A DNA stretch of 32,000 bases from Candidatus Saccharimonadota bacterium (GTDB lineage: Bacteria > Patescibacteriota > Saccharimonadia > Saccharimonadales > Saccharimonadaceae), in assembly GCA_039920285.1 (NCBI GenBank), contig JBDSDX010000001.1, forward strand, positions 420,001-452,000. The letters are read 5' to 3'. The translations under genes were made by a program, and so were the position numbers. The notes beneath the pieces are model-generated. The model saw only the letters and a program-made list of their open reading frames with translations, had not been told where the DNA came from and ran no database searches. Shown one piece after another: positions 396-32,000 of this stretch (positions are counted from its first letter, which is position 1; each line of letters begins with the position of its first letter).

Positions 396-484
396 TGAAC
401 TATAACAAAATCATCTACAGTAACGAGATTGCAAATACCTGAAACCACGCTTACAATAAGCACCACTAATAAAGAGGAGTTTGT

Positions 485-1018
485 ATGCCAAAGCCAGCAA
501 TTATTGTCGCAGGAATCGTAGGAGCAGTTGTTGTTATTGGAGGCGGTACATTCCTGGCCCTCAACATGATGAAACCAGGAGCTAATTCATCAACATCGAG
601 CACGAGCTCAACCTCAAAAGTAGCCTTAGTTGACCCTGACGGTGTGTATGATTTCTTCTCAGATCCAAGCGTCACGAAGCACCCTGAAAAGAATGCTAAA
701 TTTGGTAATGGTCAAACATTCACTTTTGAATATGATGGTTCTAAAACCAATAACGACCCATACGCAACATTATCGTACCAGCTCTATTACATTCAGAATG
801 ATGGAAAAACTCAACCAATTGGTGGCGGTAACGTTGTCGGTAAGGGAAGTGGTACATTCACCGTTTCTGATAAAGTGTACGATTCAAACACGAAAGATCG
901 CAACGGATTCTTTGAACTTCAGGGGACTTACGATACAGGATTGACCGACGCGGGTGCGATCAATGGCAAGAATGTGAAACTGGGTATGTATCCTATCACT
1001 TTTGACTACGCAGAATAA
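485..1018 (+). CDS. Hypothetical membrane-anchored extracellular protein (N-terminal TM helix, Ser/Thr linker, beta-rich domain)
   Basis: AGGAG Shine-Dalgarno 7 nt upstream of the ATG. There is a hydrophobic helix IIVAGIVGAVVVIGGGTFLAL followed by STSSTSSTS. No recognisable catalytic motif. Confidence 0.6.
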   Translation: MPKPAIIVAGIVGAVVVIGGGTFLALNMMKPGANSSTSSTSSTSKVALVDPDGVYDFFSDPSVTKHPEKNAKFGNGQTFTFEYDGSKTNNDPYATLSYQLYYIQNDGKTQPIGGGNVVGKGSGTFTVSDKVYDSNTKDRNGFFELQGTYDTGLTDAGAINGKNVKLGMYPITFDYAE

Positions 1019-9866: not shown

Positions 9867-10226
9867 ATGGATAAGATAAAACGATATAGCAAGCGAATAC
9901 TTGTTGGGTTTGTCGGAGGCCTCGTTATATTGATTGGAATAGTGTTGATCCCGTATCCTGGACCGGGCTGGTTGACGGTGTTTGCTGGATTTGCAATTCT
10001 CTCAACAGAGTTCGAATTCGCCAAGAGCGTACTCAAGTGGCTGAAAGAAAAATATGACCTATGGCTTGTCTGGCTCAAAAAACAACATGGAATTGTACAG
10101 ATAGGGATGTTTCTTTTTACGAGTCTGGTTGTAGCCGTCACCGTCTGGTTGATAAATGGCTTTGGCGCAGTAAACTATTTCCTCCAGCTTCACCAGGATT
10201 GGCTTAACTCTCCTTTATTCCATTAA
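9867..10226 (+). CDS. PGPGW-motif small membrane protein (TIGR02611-like)
   Basis: The ATG directly follows the ligA stop. Contains IPYPGPGWLTVFAGFAILSTEFEFAK, the PGPGW family signature, and 3 TM helices. Confidence 0.7.
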   Translation: MDKIKRYSKRILVGFVGGLVILIGIVLIPYPGPGWLTVFAGFAILSTEFEFAKSVLKWLKEKYDLWLVWLKKQHGIVQIGMFLFTSLVVAVTVWLINGFGAVNYFLQLHQDWLNSPLFH

Positions 10227-10285
10227 TATTGCTTTCCCACCTCTCATTGACTACAATGATGAACAGTTACCATAAGGAGAATATA

Positions 10286-10687
10286 ATGAACCCGAGTCAA
10301 GACCCAAAAAACTCAGCGCCAGACGTTTCAATGTCAATGAACGATCCAGCACCAGCAACTAATACAATCAGTGCTGCAACTGTTGCTAATTCCGCTGCTA
10401 TGAACCCCGGCAAAACCCTTGGTATTGTTGGTATGGTTCTTTCGATCGTAGGAATTGGCCTTGTTGGTCTTATCCTTAGTATCGTTGCTATGAACAAATC
10501 AAAGGCAGTTGGTATGAAGAACGGTTTTGCACTTGCCGGTCTTATTATCGGTATCGTTAACATCGTGTTTGGACTTATCTTTGGAATTCTTTTCATTGCT
10601 GGTCTTTCAAAAATTGCAAGTACGTGTAGTGATCTCGGCTCTGGCTCACACTATGTTGACGGCGTGACATACAACTGTGGATCTTAG
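10286..10687 (+). CDS. DUF4190-like membrane protein with a short Cys-bracketed C-terminal tail
   Basis: AAGGAG SD 6 nt before ATG 10286; the ORF-track TTG at 10229 is rejected. PGKTLGIVGMVLSIVGIGLVGLILSIVAMNKSK...GFALAGLIIGIV is the DUF4190 two-helix pattern. The C-terminus is CSDLGSGSHYVDGVTYNC. Confidence 0.65.
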   Translation: MNPSQDPKNSAPDVSMSMNDPAPATNTISAATVANSAAMNPGKTLGIVGMVLSIVGIGLVGLILSIVAMNKSKAVGMKNGFALAGLIIGIVNIVFGLIFGILFIAGLSKIASTCSDLGSGSHYVDGVTYNCGS

Positions 10688-11056: not shown

Positions 11057-11376
11057 AGGTTGTGTTGTATTCTTTTCTTCTTCTTTACTTCGTTGTCAGA
11101 TCGACCCTAACGACAGTAGTTCGGCGAAGAAGAGAGATTTATCTTGGTGAGGATAAGCGCCCGCCTTCTAGCTTTGTACGCGTGTGCTTCTGAACTTCCT
11201 TATTTAAGCATATACTCAAGGAATATACTAGGGCAGAATGATCAAACTACTTGTGCTTTTACCAGAGGCGGTGCATACTATGAGCATGCTGATGCGCACA
11301 GGGGTACCCTTGCGCTGGTAAAATAAACACACCATAAACATGTTGTGCCCCGGGTGGGCGCGCAGCAGCCAAAGTA

Positions 11377-11403
11377 TCGTCTCTTCAACGGAGGCGATTT
11401 TTT
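11377..11403 (+). terminator. Intrinsic terminator/attenuator 44 nt upstream of the pilin-RCC1 start
   Basis: TCGTCTC-ttcaacg-GAGGCGA (7 bp, one G-U) followed by TTTTTT. No plus-strand gene ends here, so it more likely closes a leader or small RNA. Confidence 0.55.
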
Positions 11404-11446
11404 GTTGTTACGACTAGCCGGTATAGGGCTTATGGTTTATAGTTAT

Positions 11447-12982
11447 ATGAATATGAATGTGGTCCGTAACCGAGCACCTCAACAATACCGCGGTTTTACT
11501 ATCGTCGAGTTGTTAATAGTTATCGTAGTTATTGGAATCCTAGCTACGATTGCGGTAGTTGGTTATAACGGTGTATCACAACGAGCGACTGTCGCTTTGT
11601 TGCAGTCGGAGCTTAACGGAGCTTCGAAGCGTTTGAAGATAGATCAAGTAGAAAGCGGCGCATACCCAGCAACAACAGCCGCTGCAAATAATGGAGTTGG
11701 ACTCAGTGTAACCTCAGGAATAACGTACCAGTACACGGTCGATAACATGGTGAGTCCTCAAACATTTTGCCTTACCGCAACGATAGGTACTGTGGCGTAT
11801 TACATAACTAATAATAATAGTATTCCGATATCTGGGGTGTGTCCGGGACATATTGCTCCGGGTGCACCTTCTTGGCAGGCCTTGTCTCTGGGTGATAATC
11901 ACTCATGCGGTATTGTCAGTAGCAAGGCTTACTGTTGGGGGCGTAATAATTTAGCAAGCGTTAGTCAATTAGGAAATGGAAATACCACCAACACTAAAAT
12001 TCCTGTACCAGTAAGCACAAGCGGTGTTCTCTCTGGAAAAAGTGTCACAGCAATTGACGCAGGGAGTGCACATACCTGTGTTATTGCGGGAGGTGATCCT
12101 TACTGTTGGGGTATTGGTTCGAGTGGACAGCTAGGCCAAGGTGCGTCATCGAGTTCATCTGTGCCAGTCGCTGTGACGGTGAGCGGTGTATTGAGTGGAA
12201 AACAAGTGACAGCGCTAACTGCTGGAGGTAACCATACCTGTGCAATCGCAAGTGGCGCGCTCTATTGTTGGGGCTTTAATTCTTCAGGTCAACTTGGCGA
12301 CGGGTCGACAACCACGCGGAATGCTCCAGTAGCAGTCAGTGTTGCCGGTGTACTTGCGGGTAAAACTGTAACTGCCGTCTCGGCTGGGACTGACGGTACC
12401 TGTGCAATCGCAAGTGGCGCGCTTTATTGCTGGGGGTCGGCTGCCCAGGGTCAAAATGGTGACGGCACTACTGTTGATTCATTATTGCCAGTAGCTGTAG
12501 ATACTTCGGGTGCGCTGTCTGGCAAAGTACCAACGGATGTTGCTCGAGGAAATTACCATGCTTGCGCCGTTGCAAGTGGTTCGGCGTATTGTTGGGGTTC
12601 GAATACGAATGGCGCGCTCGGTGTCGGATTTAGCCCAGGCGCCAACCCTGTAGCAGTATCGACTGCTGGTGTACTTGCAGGCAAAACCGTACAAACGATT
12701 ACTACCGGCCTGTATAGTACTTGTGCGGTAGCCGATGGTGTCGCGTATTGCTGGGGGTCATCGACTGGTGACGGTACGACAAATAACGCCTTTGCTCCAG
12801 TTGCTGTCAGTACTGCTACGGGACTTGCTGGCAAGACGGTCAGCCTAGCTTCAAAAGGCACATCACACACCTGTTTAATGGCAGGTACGGAAATTTATTG
12901 TTGGGGAGCTGCTGTTTATGGGCAGCTTGGAGATAATGCGACTATAACTCGACTCGAACCTTCACTGGTTACAAACCCTTAG
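11447..12982 (+). CDS. Type IV prepilin-like N-terminus fused to a 7-repeat RCC1-like beta-propeller
   Basis: Leader MNMNVVRNRAPQQYRG followed by FTIVELLIVIVVIGILATIAVVGY (G-1, F+1, E+5 prepilin peptidase/methylation motif). Then seven repeats, each with the motif (A/L/P/I)YCWG and a following (S/N)xGQLGDG-like turn. The GTG at 11345 is rejected because it would read through the terminator at 11377-11403. Confidence 0.8.
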   Translation: MNMNVVRNRAPQQYRGFTIVELLIVIVVIGILATIAVVGYNGVSQRATVALLQSELNGASKRLKIDQVESGAYPATTAAANNGVGLSVTSGITYQYTVDNMVSPQTFCLTATIGTVAYYITNNNSIPISGVCPGHIAPGAPSWQALSLGDNHSCGIVSSKAYCWGRNNLASVSQLGNGNTTNTKIPVPVSTSGVLSGKSVTAIDAGSAHTCVIAGGDPYCWGIGSSGQLGQGASSSSSVPVAVTVSGVLSGKQVTALTAGGNHTCAIASGALYCWGFNSSGQLGDGSTTTRNAPVAVSVAGVLAGKTVTAVSAGTDGTCAIASGALYCWGSAAQGQNGDGTTVDSLLPVAVDTSGALSGKVPTDVARGNYHACAVASGSAYCWGSNTNGALGVGFSPGANPVAVSTAGVLAGKTVQTITTGLYSTCAVADGVAYCWGSSTGDGTTNNAFAPVAVSTATGLAGKTVSLASKGTSHTCLMAGTEIYCWGAAVYGQLGDNATITRLEPSLVTNP

Positions 12983-13007
12983 CTAACCTGATATAGTGGT
13001 AGACGTT

Positions 13008-15881
13008 ATGCAGCGTTACAATCCTTCTGAAATAGAACCAAAATGGCAGCAAATCTGGGAAGACCAGAAGGCTAATGAGGTAAAAGAAGACCCGACAAAA
13101 GTGAAAACATATGTCGCGGGTATGTTCCCGTATCCAAGTGGTGCTGGTATGCACACAGGACACGCCTTCAGCTACTCAATTGTTGATGCTATCGCTCGCT
13201 TCAACCGCCAACATGGCCATAATGTTTTAAACCCAATGGGCTGGGATACGTTTGGACTCCCGGCTGAAAACTATGCTATTAAAACAGGGACTGCACCAGC
13301 AAAAGTCACGGCTGAAAATATTGCTAACTTTAAAAAGCAATTCAAACGCATGGGTGTCAGTATTGACTGGTCACGTGAGATTAACACGAGTGATCCGGAG
13401 TATTACAAATGGACCCAATGGGTCTTTACGAAATTATTTGAACGGGGCCTTGCCTATCAAAAAGAGTCATTACAGTGGTGGTGTCCTGTCGATAAAACTG
13501 TCCTTGCCAACGAACAAGTAGAGGGCGGTCACTGTTGGCGCTGTGGTAGTTTAGTTGAAAAGAAATCTATGAAACAGTGGTTTTTTAAGATTACTGAGTA
13601 CGCTGATGCGCTTCTCGATGAAATTGAAGACCTTGATTGGCCACAAAAGATTAAAACCGCGCAAACGAACTGGATTGGTAAGTCTGTCGGTGCTGAAATT
13701 GAATTCAAAGTTGATGAGCGCCAAGATATTATTACCGTCTTTACGACCCGTCCTGATACTATTTTCGGTGCGTCATTCTTGGTTATCGCTCCCGAACATT
13801 CACTTGCAAAAGAGTTAGGCGTCGGTGAGTTTAAACAAGCGACGGCTGACTATATTAATAAGGCAGTCAAAAAATCCGAAATTGACCGGACGAATGATAC
13901 CAAAGAAAAAACAGGTGTCTTTACAGGAAGTTATGCAATCAACCCAGCAAATGGCGAAAAAGTGCCAATCTGGGTGGCTGATTATGTCCTTGGTGGGTAC
14001 GGTACGGGTGCGATTATGGCGGTTCCGGCTCACGACGAGCGTGATAACGCTTTCGCTGAAAAATATCGTTTACCAATTATTCAAGTTGTGACTCCAGCAA
14101 TTTTAGATCAAGATAATCCTCCAATAGAAGGTAAAGAAGATACCGATCGTGATGTCGTCATGTGTTTGATTAAGCACCCGACCGACGATACGTATCTCAC
14201 ACTTCGTTGGACCGATTTCCCGTGGCACAATTTTGTTATGGGTGGCATCGAACGTGATGAAGACGTCGAAAAAGCAGCGCTTCGTGAGATTCAGGAAGAG
14301 ACTGGATTTACCGACCTTGAGCTCGTTGATCGTCTTCCAGTTGAGATTAACAGCAAATTCTATGCTGCCCACAAAGACGTTAATCGTAATATCTTTACAA
14401 AAGTCCTCCTCTTCCAGATGAAGAGTCTTACCCAAGGCGACACGAATCGTGAAGAACACGAGAAATTTGACGTCGAATGGACTCCTGCAGATGAGCTTCC
14501 TGAGCTGAAACCTGTTTCTGAGCTCCCTCACATTCTTCGTTGGCTTGGTGGTGAAAAAATGATGCACGCTGGGGAAGGTACACTCGTTAATTCTGGCATT
14601 TTTAGCGGTAAGACAACTGATCAAGCTCGTGAAGAAATTGTTGCTTGGCTTGAAGATAAGAAACTTGGTCACGCCAAGACAACCTATCGTATGCGTGATT
14701 GGCTGATTAGTCGTCAACGATACTGGGGTGCACCAATTCCTATTATTTATTGTCCTGATCATGGTGCTGTCGCGGTCCCTGAAGATCAACTTCCTGTCAT
14801 TTTACCCGAAATCGAAGACTACGCACCAAAAGGCGATGGTCTATCAGCACTTGCCAAAGCTGATGATTGGGTGAATACGACATGCCCAGACTGTGGCAAG
14901 CCCGCGAAACGCGAAACGGATACGATGGATGGCTACGCTTGTAGTAGTTGGTACTTGCTTCGATACGCTGATCCGCACAATGCTGAGCGTGCCTGGGACC
15001 CTGAAACGGTCAATTACTGGAACCCACTTGATTATTATGTTGGTGGTGATCACGCAGTTGCTCACTTGTTGTACGTCCGGTTCTGGACACATGTCTTCTA
15101 TGACATGAAGCTCGTGAACTTCAAAGAACCAGTCAAAAAACTGATTTATCACGGCTATATTAATGCTGAAGATGGCCGAAAGATGAGCAAGAGTCTTGGT
15201 AATGTTACCGATCCACTCGACGTTATTGATCAAGGCTACGGTGCTGATGCGCTCCGCACGTACATGCTCTTTATGGGTCCTATTGAAATGGATGCTGCTT
15301 GGAGCTCAAAAGGGATCGCGGGTGTCTTCCGTTTCCTTGGCCGTATTTGGACGTTGTCTCAACAGTGTCTTGAGGCTGATAAGACCGAGACAAAGAATGA
15401 CCAAGCGATTCGAGTTATTCAACACAAAACGATCCGTAAAGTAACAGATGACTTCCGTCGTCTGAGTTTTAATACCGCGATTTCTGCCATGATGGAATAT
15501 ACCAATGAACTATACAAGTTTAAGATTGACGGTTTTTCAGAAGATGTCTGGCACGAAGCATTGACGACATTATTCCAACTGATTGCACCATTTGCTCCGC
15601 ATATGGCTGATGAACTTTGGAATCAATATGGTAATGACGGGTTGATTCAAAATACACCGTGGCCTGTATGGGACGATGCATTGATTGTTGAAGAAGTGAT
15701 CACTATTGCAGTCCAAGTGAATGGAAAACTCCGTGGTGAGATTTCAGTTGCGAAGGATCTTGATGCTGAGGAAATTAAGTCCCAAGCGTTAGCACACGAA
15801 AATGTCGCTAAATTTGTTGGCGACAAAAAACCAGCCAAGGTGATTTATGTCCTTGGCCGGCTTGTAAATATTGTCGTTTAG
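13008..15881 (+). CDS. leuS: Leucyl-tRNA synthetase with an inserted Nudix domain in the CP1/editing region
   Basis: Collinear with bacterial LeuS, including the CWRC zinc knuckle and the editing segment TTRPDT. HIGH-type motif (PYPSGAGMHTGH) and KMSKS are both present. It carries about 160 extra aa (nt 14091-14570). ATG 13008 is preferred over GTG 12996. Confidence 0.95.
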   Translation: MQRYNPSEIEPKWQQIWEDQKANEVKEDPTKVKTYVAGMFPYPSGAGMHTGHAFSYSIVDAIARFNRQHGHNVLNPMGWDTFGLPAENYAIKTGTAPAKVTAENIANFKKQFKRMGVSIDWSREINTSDPEYYKWTQWVFTKLFERGLAYQKESLQWWCPVDKTVLANEQVEGGHCWRCGSLVEKKSMKQWFFKITEYADALLDEIEDLDWPQKIKTAQTNWIGKSVGAEIEFKVDERQDIITVFTTRPDTIFGASFLVIAPEHSLAKELGVGEFKQATADYINKAVKKSEIDRTNDTKEKTGVFTGSYAINPANGEKVPIWVADYVLGGYGTGAIMAVPAHDERDNAFAEKYRLPIIQVVTPAILDQDNPPIEGKEDTDRDVVMCLIKHPTDDTYLTLRWTDFPWHNFVMGGIERDEDVEKAALREIQEETGFTDLELVDRLPVEINSKFYAAHKDVNRNIFTKVLLFQMKSLTQGDTNREEHEKFDVEWTPADELPELKPVSELPHILRWLGGEKMMHAGEGTLVNSGIFSGKTTDQAREEIVAWLEDKKLGHAKTTYRMRDWLISRQRYWGAPIPIIYCPDHGAVAVPEDQLPVILPEIEDYAPKGDGLSALAKADDWVNTTCPDCGKPAKRETDTMDGYACSSWYLLRYADPHNAERAWDPETVNYWNPLDYYVGGDHAVAHLLYVRFWTHVFYDMKLVNFKEPVKKLIYHGYINAEDGRKMSKSLGNVTDPLDVIDQGYGADALRTYMLFMGPIEMDAAWSSKGIAGVFRFLGRIWTLSQQCLEADKTETKNDQAIRVIQHKTIRKVTDDFRRLSFNTAISAMMEYTNELYKFKIDGFSEDVWHEALTTLFQLIAPFAPHMADELWNQYGNDGLIQNTPWPVWDDALIVEEVITIAVQVNGKLRGEISVAKDLDAEEIKSQALAHENVAKFVGDKKPAKVIYVLGRLVNIVV

Positions 15882-16838: not shown

Positions 16839-17300
16839 ATGGCATCTAATCGTCATCTCGGTCGCATCGTCGCTTTACAGACACTCTATGAGTTCGAGTT
16901 TCGAACCCAGTCTGAAGACCCTACTGTTGACGTCAAGGAAATCCTTGCACGTAACTTAGCGCGTTATGAAGAAGCTATTGATGATACTGACTTCGTTTCA
17001 GCCCTCGTTGACGGGGTGCTGAAGGAACAAGCCGATATTGACATTAAGATTCAACCAATTGCGCCTGACTGGCCAATTGAACAGATTGCTCGCGTCGATC
17101 GTACGATTCTTCGTATCGGCGTCTATGAACTGCTCCATCAAGGTAAGGTCGTCCCACCTAAGGTGGCGATTAACGAAGCAGTCGAGCTTGCTAAAGCGTT
17201 TGGTTCGGATAACTCGAGTAAGTTTGTGAACGGTGTGCTGGGAACAGCGTACCGCACGCTTGTAGAGGGAGCCGAAGATGGCACCAGCACCACAGTTTGA
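16839..17300 (+). CDS. nusB: Transcription antitermination factor NusB
   Basis: RHLGRIVALQTLYEFEF...RVDRTILRIGVYELL...PPKVAINEAVELAKAFGSDNSSKFVNGVLG are typical NusB blocks. Confidence 0.9.
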   Translation: MASNRHLGRIVALQTLYEFEFRTQSEDPTVDVKEILARNLARYEEAIDDTDFVSALVDGVLKEQADIDIKIQPIAPDWPIEQIARVDRTILRIGVYELLHQGKVVPPKVAINEAVELAKAFGSDNSSKFVNGVLGTAYRTLVEGAEDGTSTTV

Positions 17301-17778
17301 TAAATTCAAAAAATATTTCAACCGCAATAAACGACCATCCATTCAGGAAATTGTCCGCGAACCGACCGCAGGTGGAATTGTCTTTCGTCGTAATGACAAA
17401 GAAGAAATTGAATTTCTCTTAATTCAGGACCATAAAGATCGTTGGACAATTCCAAAAGGTCACATTGAAGAAGGTGAAACTGCTCAACAGGCTGCGAAAC
17501 GTGAGATTGGTGAAGAAGCCGGTCTTATGAATACCGAAATGCACGGTTGGCTTGGGAAAATCCATTTCCGATACCGACGTATCGACAAGTTGGTACTGAT
17601 TTCTCAACAGGTTTATCTGATGAAGGTGAAGACTGACGGCGAAGAAATTCAAAAAGAAGACTGGATGAACGGCATTAAGTGGTTCTCATTTTACGATGCG
17701 CTCGATGCGATCGAATATGAGGACATCGGTAAGCTGTTGATGTTGGGTATGAAGCGAATTAGGCAGGAGAAATTATAG
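17278..17778 (+). CDS. Nudix hydrolase (free-standing)
   Basis: Nudix box GHIEEGETAQQAAKREIGEEAGL (GX5EX7REUXEEXGU). GAGGGAG SD. Overlaps the nusB end by 23 nt and abuts rnc. Confidence 0.85.
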   Translation: MAPAPQFDKFKKYFNRNKRPSIQEIVREPTAGGIVFRRNDKEEIEFLLIQDHKDRWTIPKGHIEEGETAQQAAKREIGEEAGLMNTEMHGWLGKIHFRYRRIDKLVLISQQVYLMKVKTDGEEIQKEDWMNGIKWFSFYDALDAIEYEDIGKLLMLGMKRIRQEKL

Positions 17779-18491
17779 TGACGGGAATGCAAGTGGGTCC
17801 GTATCAAGATTTTGCACGCGAGACGTTGGGCTTTGAATTTAGTAACCTCGATTTACTGGTGACCGCTTTTACGCATCGTTCATATGTTAATGAACACCGC
17901 AAAAGCGTTCACGAGCACAACGAACGACTTGAGTTCCTCGGTGATGCCGTCCTTGAACTCGTTGTGACTGATTTCTTATTTAATAATTACGCAGAACCAG
18001 AAGGAATCTTGACGAGTTGGCGTGCGTCATTGGTTCGGACTGAAAGTATTGGTGAAGCGGGAAAGCTTCTTAACTACGAATCGTTGATTCGAATGAGTCG
18101 TGGTGAAAAACAAGGAGGCGACCGCGCTCGTCAACAAATCCTCGCCAATGCTTTCGAAGCACTTATCGGTGCAATCTATCTTGAGCGTGGATACGACGAT
18201 GCCGCGGTATTTATTCAAAAGAATATCTCAAGCAAACTCGATCACATCATTGCCGAAGGAAGCTGGCGTGATCCAAAGTCACATCTTCAAGAAGTCATGC
18301 AGCGTAAAGACAACGTCACGCCACGCTACGTGGTACTTGAAGAAGTCGGTCCTGATCACGACAAAGTATTTACCCTCGGAGTCTATTCAAACGATCGACT
18401 TGTCAGCAAAGGAACTGGTCCGAGTAAACAAGCTGCTCAGCAAGAAGCGGCGAAAGCAGCCTTGGCCTTCTACACTGACGGCGAAAAATAA
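17778..18491 (+). CDS. rnc: Ribonuclease III
   Basis: RNase III signature ERLEFLGDAVLE, and a C-terminal dsRBD (GPDHDKVFTLGV...GTGPSKQAAQQEAAKAAL). The GTG start overlaps the upstream stop (TAGTG); ATG 17787 is an alternative. Confidence 0.95.
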   Translation: MTGMQVGPYQDFARETLGFEFSNLDLLVTAFTHRSYVNEHRKSVHEHNERLEFLGDAVLELVVTDFLFNNYAEPEGILTSWRASLVRTESIGEAGKLLNYESLIRMSRGEKQGGDRARQQILANAFEALIGAIYLERGYDDAAVFIQKNISSKLDHIIAEGSWRDPKSHLQEVMQRKDNVTPRYVVLEEVGPDHDKVFTLGVYSNDRLVSKGTGPSKQAAQQEAAKAALAFYTDGEK

Positions 18492-18566
18492 CATCTCTGT
18501 CGATTGACAAGATCGTACTCAACTTGCACACTAGACACAAGCAATATATAAAAGAAAGTTACCATT

Positions 18567-19352
18567 ATGCCACCGAGCAATAATCCTGACCCTACACAGC
18601 AAACACCTACTCCGACCCCCGAGGTGACACCGCCTGCACCAATTATTTCGTCACAACCGATGACACCTGGTGTTCCACTCGTTGCGAATAAGCCATCACA
18701 TATGAAATTAATACTTATTATCATTATCGCTGTGCTCATTTTGGCAGGCATTGCTGTCGGTCTCTTCTTGATGCTCGGTAGTAATAGTAAGACTGGTTCA
18801 AAATCAGTCATCGATAAGGCAGTTGCAACCGTGACTGCAGGTAAAGATGTCAGCGATCGTTCTGACGGCACTCTTGATGTTAGCTCGAATACGGTCGATG
18901 GAAACAAAGGCATCGCCGATCAGACATTGACCGCAAAACTGAATCAACAGGTGAATCTTAAGAATGGCCTGAGCTTGATGATTACGAAAGTTGAACGCAA
19001 CTTCACTGGATTTGATGCAAAATACTTGAGCGTTAAGTCTGACGAAGAAGTAGTTGCACTGACTTTGGTTGCTGGAAGCCGAAATACTTCAGGTAATGGT
19101 GTTCCTAACTCGGCTCTCACTTTGGTATCTCCAAGTAGCGCTAAAATTACTCCAGAATTTGTCTCAAGCCTCGCAAAAGTTGACGGTAAATTCGATAGCG
19201 GAAGCGGTATCGATCAGGGTAAACAAGTGAGTGGTCGCGTGCTCTATGTCGTCAAGAAGGACGAAGCTCCACTTACCTTCAAATACAGTGCACAGTACAA
19301 GAACTACACGACTGATGCAATTGTGACTATCGCAGCAACTATTAATCTTTAG
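18567..19352 (+). CDS. Hypothetical membrane-anchored extracellular protein (Pro/Thr-rich N-terminus, TM helix, possible DUF4352-like Ig-fold domain)
   Basis: TM helix LILIIIIAVLILAGIAVGLFLML. The C-terminal pattern (LMITKVERNF...GKQVSGRVLYVVKKDEAPLTFKY) resembles DUF4352, judged by eye. Confidence 0.55.
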   Translation: MPPSNNPDPTQQTPTPTPEVTPPAPIISSQPMTPGVPLVANKPSHMKLILIIIIAVLILAGIAVGLFLMLGSNSKTGSKSVIDKAVATVTAGKDVSDRSDGTLDVSSNTVDGNKGIADQTLTAKLNQQVNLKNGLSLMITKVERNFTGFDAKYLSVKSDEEVVALTLVAGSRNTSGNGVPNSALTLVSPSSAKITPEFVSSLAKVDGKFDSGSGIDQGKQVSGRVLYVVKKDEAPLTFKYSAQYKNYTTDAIVTIAATINL

Positions 19353-31446: not shown

Positions 31447-32000
31447 CTAGTTGTCGACAACTAAACAGGTACTCTGGGAGCTTGCGTCGCCAGTGTAGTA
31501 CACATATGCCTTTTCTTCTTGGTAGTTCCAGAATTCAACTCTGTTACCACCTGTGCCACAGTCAAGTAAGGCAATGACATTTGGTGATGCCGGTTCGCTG
31601 GTAAGTGTTTGGGTGGCAAAGCTAATTCCTGTCGCGACACCGGTTGTTTCATCTTGAAGTTGAGTTGCGTTCTTTGGGTAGGCGCCTTTATTTGCATTGT
31701 ATGTCTCCACCCACTTCACGACAGCTTGGGCGTTGGCCTGTGCGCTCGTTGTGTTGGCTTTTGCAGTGATGCCATTATATGAGACGATCGTGATAGCGAA
31801 AAAGATGCCGATTCCTATAACAGTCATGACGCTACCGATAACTATTCCAGCCAACGCAAGGCCATTTGTAAAGCCAGCTCTTTTTGATTTCGAGAGAGCG
31901 ATGATTGATACGATCAGTCCTGCAAGAGAGGAGACGAAGGAGAGGATGAATCCTACAATACCTAGTGTTTTGCCGGGGTCTACTTTGGGTGCTGTTGCCA
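31447..32000 (-). CDS. DUF4190-like membrane anchor fused to a pilin-like globular domain (5' end beyond the window)
   Basis: The frame stays open upstream of the ORF-track TTG at 31854 to the window edge. It translates to ...PGKTLGIVGFILSFVSSLAGLIVSIIALSKSKRAGFTNGLALAGIVIG..., a paralog of 10286-10687. The C-terminal part (SYNGITAKANTTSAQANAQAVVKWVETYNANKGAYP...C...C) resembles a pilin head. Confidence 0.6.
   Translation of the reverse strand, partial: ATAPKVDPGKTLGIVGFILSFVSSLAGLIVSIIALSKSKRAGFTNGLALAGIVIGSVMTVIGIGIFFAITIVSYNGITAKANTTSAQANAQAVVKWVETYNANKGAYPKNATQLQDETTGVATGISFATQTLTSEPASPNVIALLDCGTGGNRVEFWNYQEEKAYVYYTGDASSQSTCLVVDN

Follow-up and report, generated by a model that had tools for sequence, protein, structure and literature searches.

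A predicted modular type IV pilin with an RCC1-type beta-propeller encoded beside leuS in a Saccharibacteria genome

A gene encoding a predicted modular type IV pilin with a C-terminal RCC1-type beta-propeller (the pilin-RCC1 gene) was identified in a 32,000-nucleotide stretch of a Candidatus Saccharimonadota genome (GenBank assembly GCA_039920285.1, contig JBDSDX010000001.1, positions 420,001 to 452,000), the whole of which is referred to as the window. The open reading frame (ORF) lies on the + strand, extends from a GTG at 11345 to the stop codon at 12980-12982 and contains candidate in-frame ATG starts at 11432, 11447 and 11453. Residues are numbered from the ATG at 11447, which gives a protein of 511 amino acids (aa); the 512 aa given in an earlier interpretation of the same DNA (the sequence-only reading) include the stop codon. 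An identical protein in the NCBI record (MEO6109807.1 / MEO6389804.1), derived from a Candidatus Saccharibacteria metagenome-assembled genome (MAG), starts at 11453, comprises 509 aa and is named [quoted passage not shown]. About 40 nt 5' of the ATG starts, inside the 390-bp gap that follows the divergent RRM gene, there is a terminator-like hairpin followed by a run of T; it could be a terminator or a regulatory leader. This element falls within the long version of the ORF beginning at GTG 11345, and the ATG starts are therefore favoured. The coordinates of the features are listed in Table 1.

At its N-terminus the protein has a class III signal, for which cleavage is predicted behind Gly16 and in which position +5 is Glu, as the sequence-only reading had proposed in calling it a textbook signal. 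Pfam N_methyl (PF07963) matches residues 14-36 with 28.1 bits (cut-off 21.2), and NCBIfam IV_pilin_GFxxxE (TIGR02532) matches with 25 bits (cut-off 16.3). Among 21 aligned full-length homologues, F17, T18 and E21 do not vary, and at least 90% of the sequences have G16. A PDB-wide sequence search (phmmer) aligned F17 to residue 1 of mature pilins, including those of Geobacter, Thermus (PilA4), Dichelobacter (FimA), Neisseria (PilE) and Pseudomonas (PilA), as well as GspG. The signal is confirmed because both thresholds are passed, these residues are conserved and F17 coincides with the first residue of mature pilins. The mature N-terminus reads FTIVE after …YRG, with E21 as Glu5. The leader is short and basic, ends in Gly16 and is the least conserved region among the homologues (21% mean pairwise identity, variable length); residues 17-45, which form the assembly helix alpha1N, show 66% mean identity across the pilin-RCC1 family. 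No second class III motif was found by a motif scan of the whole window.

According to sequence comparison and structure prediction, residues 17-133 form a complete and compact pilin module (the carrier) that is most like the major pilin PilA4. The AlphaFold2 models contain the long N-terminal helix and the antiparallel beta-sheet of the pilin fold. Helix alpha1 spans residues 19-70 (52 residues; hydrophobic alpha1N, then alpha1C) and is followed by a short helix at residues 80-83 and by beta-strands at residues 93-99, 106-113, 116-121 and about 128-129. The mean confidence (pLDDT) is 88 for the full-length model and 87 for residues 1-145 modelled alone. The NCBIfam models GspG and PilA give partial matches over residues 12-121. 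PilA4, the major pilin of the wide pilus of Thermus thermophilus (6xxd), is the best match to the carrier in both sequence and structure: it was aligned to residues 17-121 in the PDB sequence search (E 1.3e-6), and 6xxd_A was the only significant Foldseek match in the PDB for the carrier model of residues 1-145 (E 2.2e-4, TM-score 0.61, 27% identity over 120 aligned columns of the 125-residue chain). PilA4 differs in being a stand-alone major pilin of 125 aa without an extra module. Cys108 and Cys132 are both present in 16 of the 21 homologues, both absent from the other five and never found singly, which fits a disulfide closing the C-terminal loop of the pilin. The view that a propeller stands here in place of a normal pilin head of about 120 aa is thus not borne out, since the helix, the sheet and the PilA4 match all lie in a complete small pilin module ahead of the propeller. 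The two parts are joined by a Pro/Gly-rich linker of about 10 residues, which is the least confident stretch of the AlphaFold2 model (pLDDT 69 in the block 131-140) and varies in length from 2 to 19 residues among the homologues, with a mean identity of 22%.

The remainder of the protein is a seven-bladed RCC1-like beta-propeller. This part of the sequence-only reading, which had noted seven RCC1 repeats with YCWG and a GQLGDG-like turn, is supported by both profiles and models. Pfam assigns WD40_RLD (177 bits, E 6.7e-52) and RCC1 (E 1.7e-44) to this region, with six stretches matched by RCC1 and four by RCC1_2, and every blade contains H-x-C … Y-C-W-G together with a GQLG-type turn (seven YCWG motifs in all). 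The AlphaFold2 propeller consists of 28 strands, four in each of the seven blades, mostly with pLDDT above 90. Its top Foldseek match is UVR8 (E 8e-35, TM-score 0.90), followed by RPGR, the RCC1-like domains (RLDs) of HERC1/2 and RCC1; the bacterial RCC1-like protein BLIP-II (3qi0) is also among the matches. UVR8, RPGR, the HERC1/2 RLDs and RCC1 have the same seven-bladed fold with 20-29% identity to the window propeller, and BLIP-II shows 21% identity. The eukaryotic RCC1-like proteins are intracellular, whereas the pilin context of the window protein is extracellular. This context, the Cys pair in each blade and a GVLxGK loop distinguish the bacterial group of the window protein from UVR8, RPGR, HERC, RCC1 and BLIP-II.

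Fourteen Cys residues of the propeller are invariant among the 21 homologues and form seven pairs, one per blade, with members nine residues apart. In 7/7 blades, adding the residue numbers of the two Cys gives the same total as adding those of the hairpin ends, which places the two Cys directly opposite each other across the beta-hairpin. Seven cross-strand disulfides are thus suggested by the model, fitting an extracellular protein, and together with the pair in the pilin head they would be disulfide staples suited to such a protein. Scaffold positions of the propeller are kept among the homologues and loop positions are variable.

Modular pilins were defined by Raynaud et al. 2021 as proteins composed of a small pilin carrier, a short linker and a grafted functional module, and more than 1,200 proteins with 264 architectures were counted (PMC8179133). 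The window protein has the same layout, with a carrier at residues 17-133, a linker at 134-142 and a propeller at 143-511, and the gene is, as far as sequence and models indicate, that of a bimodular (modular) type IV pilin with an RCC1 propeller. The proposal of a minor or tip pilin displaying a propeller of about 40 kDa agrees with this architecture and, by analogy, with the published class (PMC8179133). Several architectures combining IPR012902 with RCC1 (IPR000408/PF13540) are included in Dataset S1 of the same study, with one protein each and without comment (PMC8179133). The modular pilin PilB of Streptococcus sanguinis, which has a vWA module, was shown to be an adhesin; it can be accommodated at the pilus tip only and clashes in the filament body when modelled (PMC8179133). 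S. sanguinis PilB (vWA) and PilC (lectin) are organised like the window protein: a canonical class III signal and a small, complete carrier come first, and a short linker connects these to a bulky binding module at the C-terminus. Low abundance and exposure at the tip are predicted for both the S. sanguinis proteins and the window protein. The PilC lectin is paralleled by a laminin-G/ConA-like lectin on the carrier in relatives of the window protein. The module of the window protein itself is an RCC1 propeller rather than a vWA or lectin domain. S. sanguinis is a coloniser of animals, whereas the window organism is an epibiont of bacteria and its pilin family is known here from sequences and models.

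Table 1. Features of the pilin-RCC1 gene, its surroundings in the window and the sites of related genes in other genomes
Feature	Position	Strand	Basis
Leader peptide of the class III (prepilin) signal, residues 1-16 (MNMNVVRNRAPQQYRG)	11447..11494	+	Sequence; predicted cleavage after Gly16
Pilin (carrier) module, residues 17-133	11495..11845	+	Pfam, NCBIfam, PDB sequence search, AlphaFold2, Foldseek
Pro/Gly-rich linker, residues 134-142 (GHIAPGAPS; PGHIAPGAPS with Pro133)	11846..11872	+	pLDDT dip, variability
Seven-bladed RCC1-like beta-propeller, residues 143-511	11873..12979	+	Pfam, AlphaFold2, Foldseek
Blades 1-7 of the propeller	Residues about 143-199, 200-253, 254-307, 308-361, 362-414, 415-464, 465-511		AlphaFold2
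Terminator-like nine-pair hairpin, then T-run TTTTTGTTGT	11376-11408	+	Consensus scan only
S-adenosylmethionine (SAM) synthetase C-terminal fragment, ABC-F ATPase, kinase, LemA, M48 peptidase, ligA	Window, upstream part		
Genes for PGPGW protein, DUF4190 protein and RRM protein	Upstream of the pilin gene	RRM gene on -	
Pilin-RCC1 gene	Between the RRM-protein gene and leuS; leuS 14 bp downstream		
nusB, Nudix protein, rnc, rpsP, KhpA/KhpB-type KH-domain protein gene, trmD	After leuS		
Nucleotide-metabolism genes and others	Further on in the window		
Pilin-RCC1 gene at the site of the window gene, whole region syntenic	L005/L006, upstream of leuS		
Pilin-RCC1 gene	L003, between rpsJ and rplC		
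Pilin-RCC1 gene	L007, between thyA and folA		
Pilin-RCC1 gene	L008, between rpmE and rpsB		
Pilin-RCC1 tandem pair	L010, next to smpB		
Pilin-RCC1 tandem pair	L012, upstream of leuS		

Full-length homologues of the window protein have about 500-530 aa, the same layout and 38-50% identity; a few, of about 890 aa, contain two propellers. When residues 1-200 were searched against 1.84 billion representatives of clusters at 50% identity, pilin-RCC1 fusions accounted for at least 34 clusters among the best 150 representatives (29 with a single propeller and five with a double propeller), a lower bound as these 150 are dominated by giant multi-repeat RCC1 proteins. In each of the seven genomes examined, the gene is an orphan amid housekeeping genes. 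The counterpart at the syntenic site is 46% identical to the window pilin, compared with 71-80% for ligA, leuS, nusB, rnc, rpsP, trmD and other housekeeping neighbours, which indicates either that the pilin diverges much faster than its neighbours or that a paralogue has replaced it. Fast divergence at this site is as expected of a host-contact protein.

Tandem copies have been found at two loci. In L010 (8291-11554) the copies adjoin smpB and are 61% identical to each other; an 872-aa Laminin_G_3/Fibrinogen_C protein and a sortase gene are encoded nearby. In L012 (8406-11554; GCA_030696935.1, labelled Actinomycetota) a pair with 45-47% identity to the window protein is present on a contig with a guanine-plus-cytosine (GC) content of 61.5%, whose LeuS has 45% identity to Saccharibacteria LeuS. 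The pair suggests that pilin-RCC1 genes have been transferred between phyla or that the family is distributed more widely.

Closely related propellers (about 50% identity) are also found in secreted proteins that are not pilins and that have an ordinary signal peptide and fn3 or TIG domains; some of these are encoded on contigs labelled Actinomycetota. Among proteins that are not pilins, P0002, an RCC1 protein encoded at L011 8001-9767 and equipped with an ordinary Sec-type signal peptide, gives the best match to the propeller (53% identity). Its contig is labelled Actinobacteria and includes a fused MFS/thymidylate-kinase gene, a gene of the DNA polymerase III delta' type (holB-like) and a PIN/PhdYeFM toxin-antitoxin pair. 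Actinobacteria are known hosts of Saccharibacteria, so that an exchange of propeller modules between the two is conceivable. In a crude neighbour-joining tree of 113 propellers, those fused to pilins do not form one clade, and pilin and non-pilin propellers are intermixed; the labels of this tree are motif-based and miss PilX-like and partial proteins, and it is used for the statement on intermixing only.

The carrier itself is shared with other proteins. A search with residues 1-142, whose listing includes neither the query protein nor other RCC1 fusions and is therefore not exhaustive, found the carrier at 50-62% identity on plain pilins of 124-190 aa. Many fusions to F5/8-type-C (discoidin) domains, about 248 aa in length, have the same carrier, as do NHL, Ig, LRR and FG-GAP fusions and, in related loci, laminin-G and ALK_LTK_GRD fusions. 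The presence of one carrier on discoidin, laminin-G, NHL, Ig, LRR and glycine-rich modules argues for a repertoire of pilus-displayed binding modules. Several of these genes lie close to pilin-RCC1 genes. A second orphan modular pilin (N_methyl and Laminin_G_3, 354 aa) is encoded at L005 17702-18766 (+), at a distance of 6 kb from the gene for the RCC1 pilin. It is flanked by rpsP and the KhpA/KhpB-type KH-domain gene, a position at which the window has no gene. In L008 (10001-19183), four modular pilins with the same carrier are interleaved with rpsB and tsf in about 9 kb: a double-propeller RCC1 protein (883 aa), a 386-aa protein with an unassigned module, a 755-aa protein with an ALK_LTK_GRD glycine-rich module and a 353-aa Laminin_G_3 protein. 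A 188-aa pilin with the same carrier (54% identity) is encoded at L014 10001-10567, inside an apparent integrative conjugative element that also contains genes for a serine recombinase, Replic_Relax, a VirD4-type coupling protein, TrbL, a sortase and a SIR2-like protein.

An RCC1-propeller pilin of the same phylum has been studied experimentally in Nanosynbacter lyticus TM7x (Grossman et al., ISME J 2025, PMC12206443). The T4P-2 pilus of this organism includes the minor pilin PilX2 (TM7x_02980), whose propeller is hepta-bladed and of the RCC1 type. With pilX2 deleted, the proportion of host cells bound was 4.6% instead of about 10.6%, as low as in the pilA2, pilB2 and pilC2 mutants, and PilX2 was proposed as the adhesin of the T4P-2 pilus (PMC12206443). 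The analogy to the PilY1/PilC tip adhesins of Pseudomonas and Neisseria, in which a beta-propeller is likewise shown by a type IV pilus for adhesion, has been drawn by Grossman et al. (PMC12206443). PilY1 differs in that it is not a pilin, is held by a minor-pilin complex and has a propeller of another family (IPR008707/PF05567). A PilY1-like identity of the window protein was considered and rejected: Pfam gave no PF05567 match to it, its Foldseek matches are of the RCC1 type only and it is itself a pilin.

PilX2 was compared through its orthologue at the near-identical locus L001 (a Saccharibacteria MAG), which was found with the pilX2 deletion primers of the published study; these bracket a 583-aa ORF beside a 141-aa canonical pilin. 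PilX2 and the window protein come from the same phylum and have a hydrophobic pilin-type helix and a globular region followed by a seven-bladed RCC1 propeller. The N-terminus of PilX2 (…KKDGYSLVLIVL…) is non-canonical, with no Glu5, no N_methyl match and no predicted PilD site; the L001 orthologue starts MMRKKDGYSLVLIVLM… and likewise lacks Glu5 and a Pfam N_methyl match. Its N-terminal domain is longer (about 170 aa) and cannot be aligned to that of the window protein, and BLASTP aligns the window protein and the L001 orthologue over the propeller only (33% identity). The absence of a canonical signal in PilX2 and the restriction of the alignment to the propeller indicate that the window protein is not a PilX2 orthologue. 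The genomic settings also differ, as pilX2 belongs to a minor-pilin operon beside pilA2 and pilW2 (also pilV2 and pilZ2), whereas the window gene is an orphan.

The two types are connected by P0053, a full-length PilX2 homologue with 29% identity from residue 8 to the end, the N-terminal domain included, whose propeller is 47% identical to the window propeller. The occurrence of related RCC1 propellers on two pilin-type carriers makes a stronger case for the propeller as a pilus-displayed module. The P0053 gene (L015 10001-11695) is also an orphan, and its contig encodes a Pup ligase (PF03136), an enzyme typical of Actinomycetota; PilX2-like proteins may thus not be confined to Saccharibacteria. 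The 21-nt primer PilX2_Up_F also has an exact match at L002 6443-6463, on a contig of 30% GC binned as Bacteroidetes, which may be a chance match or a mis-binned Saccharibacteria contig.

Taken together, the protein is read as a modular pilin that is processed by PilD and built into a type IV pilus, with its RCC1 propeller binding a ligand on the host; a probability of about 0.62 is given to this reading. After export by the Sec system, PilD would cut after Gly16 and methylate Phe17, and the subunit would wait in the membrane, anchored by its hydrophobic helix. The type IV pilus machinery would then build it at low stoichiometry into a filament composed mainly of a small major pilin. As the propeller caps the pilin head, it would be exposed at or near the filament tip, where it might bind a ligand on the host bacterium and tether the epibiont, a role shown genetically for PilX2 of TM7x. 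The pilin module would serve as a general carrier for binding modules. This reading is supported by the architecture, the spread of the family, the PilX2 precedent, the shared carrier, the fast divergence and the tandem duplicates in two genomes.

Several points weigh against it. The pilin gene has leuS 14 bp downstream and no pilus gene in its vicinity, and a domain scan of the 32 kb window gave no match to T2SSE, T2SSF, Peptidase_A24 or PilM/N/O. The separation from other pilus genes stated in the sequence-only reading was found both in the window and in the seven genomes examined. Pilus incorporation, PilD processing and surface exposure are inferred, and the proposed part of the propeller in adhesion is drawn from the analogy to PilX2 and to S. 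sanguinis PilB. The tested example, PilX2, is not an orthologue of the window protein and differs from it in N-terminal module and genomic setting. The position in the filament is also uncertain. Korotkov and Hol are said to have noted in 2008 that tip-most initiating pilins of the GspK/PilX type lack Glu5. The invariant Glu5 of the window type suggests that this subunit docks beneath another and is not the first one. Because PilX2 and the GspK-type pilins lack Glu5 and the window type keeps it, the two types of RCC1 pilin may occupy different positions in the filament.

With regard to the isolated gene, pilus genes are also found singly elsewhere in the lineage. In L013, an 828-kb Saccharibacteria-type genome, a plain 125-aa pilin gene (10001-10378, +) is isolated between a ClpB/ClpC-type AAA+ ATPase gene and nusA, as is a PilB-like ATPase gene (17293-18915, -) between rplS and a SpoU methylase gene. 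Such single, scattered pilus genes show that the separation of the window gene is not unusual for this lineage. When the L013 PilB-like ATPase was used as query, 120 Saccharimonadaceae-type ATPases with 81-100% identity were among the matches listed, and PilB is strongly conserved in Saccharimonadaceae. Type IV pili are nearly universal in Saccharibacteria (PMC12206443). On these two grounds, PilD and the assembly machinery are presumed to be encoded elsewhere in the genome of the window.

The class III signal might instead only export and anchor the propeller, or lead to a short non-pilus assembly, so that the propeller acts at the cell surface without a filament. Sugar-binding proteins of the Sulfolobus "bindosome" have class III signals and form a non-pilus surface assembly. 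The gene is never beside pilus genes in the seven genomes, and Saccharibacteria are tiny and touch their hosts directly, so that a short reach could suffice. The window also contains an ORF (31447-32000) with a pilin-head-like domain on a DUF4190 two-helix anchor and no prepilin signal, which indicates that the lineage does place such domains directly on the membrane. This alternative is nevertheless considered unlikely. The pilin module is a complete one whose closest matches are major pilins that form filaments, and the invariance of F17, T18 and E21, the retention of G16 and the conservation of alpha1N describe an assembly interface whose preservation would not be required of a simple anchor. 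It is also normal for pilus genes to be scattered in these genomes, and PilX2 behaves as a part of the T4P-2 filament (PMC12206443).

It is similarly improbable that the propeller, though displayed on a pilus, serves a purpose other than host adhesion, such as binding of environmental polymers or surfaces, action as a phage receptor or decoy, DNA uptake by a competence pilus or inhibition of a host enzyme. RCC1-like propellers are generic protein-binding scaffolds, and BLIP-II, which is among the structural matches, is a secreted RCC1-like propeller that inhibits beta-lactamases. Related propellers occur on the non-pilin secreted proteins with fn3 or TIG domains described above, and the pilin-RCC1 genes on the non-Saccharibacteria contig L012 indicate that the module is not tied to epibiosis. 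On the other hand, the sole experimental result for an RCC1 pilin is a defect in host binding (PMC12206443), and fast divergence with duplication fits a partner-specific ligand.

A major subunit that repeats along a thick "bottle-brush" filament, with a propeller on each subunit, is very improbable. The resemblance of the pilin module to major pilins and its Glu5 agree with this arrangement, and a flexible linker could let the propeller swing outward. However, type IV filaments built from 50-kDa subunits are not generally known, the linker has only 2-19 residues and in the model the propeller follows directly after the head. The comparable S. sanguinis PilB clashes sterically in the filament body (PMC8179133), and the plain same-carrier pilins of 124-190 aa are better candidates for the major subunit. 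Least credible of all is an annotation artefact, raised as a doubt in the sequence-only reading, in which the true start lies downstream of FTIVELL and the product is an ordinary RCC1 repeat protein; such a wrong start codon was rejected on conservation and structure, since the N-terminal 140 residues are kept in register across the 21 full-length homologues from different genomes, fold confidently in AlphaFold2 as residues 1-145 (pLDDT 87) and match solved pilins, and the only in-frame Met between residue 3 and the propeller is Met100, which is inside the folded head.

Among the candidates for host recognition and attachment by ultrasmall epibionts, binding modules displayed on pili take the lead. 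The window gene does not reveal a new kind of system: the modular pilin class, the N_methyl and RCC1 architecture and a functional precedent in the same phylum have all been published. The contribution of the present study lies in correcting the anatomy, distinguishing the protein from PilX2, describing how large the family is and its orphan genomics, and documenting the fast divergence at a syntenic site and the repertoire with a shared carrier. A canonical PilD-type RCC1-propeller pilin is thereby added to the one tested example, PilX2. The family is widespread and fast-evolving in uncultured Saccharibacteria and its carrier is reused for many other binding modules, which together provides a concrete list of candidate host-range determinants that are testable with the genetic tools now existing for Saccharibacteria.

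A broader proposal, which is tentative and rather doubtful, is that environmental Saccharibacteria and some other bacteria possess a cassette-like repertoire of orphan modular pilins that together set which hosts can be attached. One conserved carrier would be recombined with RCC1, discoidin, laminin-G, NHL, Ig, LRR and glycine-rich modules, and the RCC1 propeller would ride on two carriers, one canonical and PilA-like, the other PilX-like. The genes would be scattered among housekeeping genes, duplicated in tandem and fast-diverging, and modular pilins might pass between the phyla of epibiont and host. If true, this would amount to a "receptor-binding protein" system at the pilus tip, comparable to the diversification of phage tail fibres.

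The window as a whole is a housekeeping region. A scan for promoters and terminators gave only background-level signals, and an Rfam search of the window found three transfer RNAs (tRNAs) and nothing close to the pilin gene. Two genes upstream of it, the DUF4190 membrane protein (10229-10687, +) has a short Cys-containing extracellular tail (…CSDLGSGSHYVDGVTYNCGS) and shows 48% identity to its syntenic relative, which places it among the faster-diverging neighbours. The downstream gene leuS (12996-15881, +) encodes a LeuS of 961 aa with a NUDIX insert (Pfam PF00293, aa 387-516, 52.7 bits against a cut-off of 21.1) at about 14154-14543, just past the editing domain. The LeuS of the syntenic relative (L005, 823 aa) is without this insert, and BLASTP covers residues 5-365 and 488-961 only. 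A Nudix hydrolase inside an aminoacyl-tRNA synthetase looks unusual. The ORF at 31447-32000 (-) runs past the end of the window. In its product, a DUF4190-like membrane anchor of two helices precedes a pilin-like domain, made up of alpha1C and a head with a C-terminal Cys pair, and there is no class III signal. This domain gives a weak GspG match and resembles the PilA2-type pilin of L001 (29% identity over 102 aa, E 3e-12), so that the ORF has the look of a pilin head transferred to another membrane anchor.

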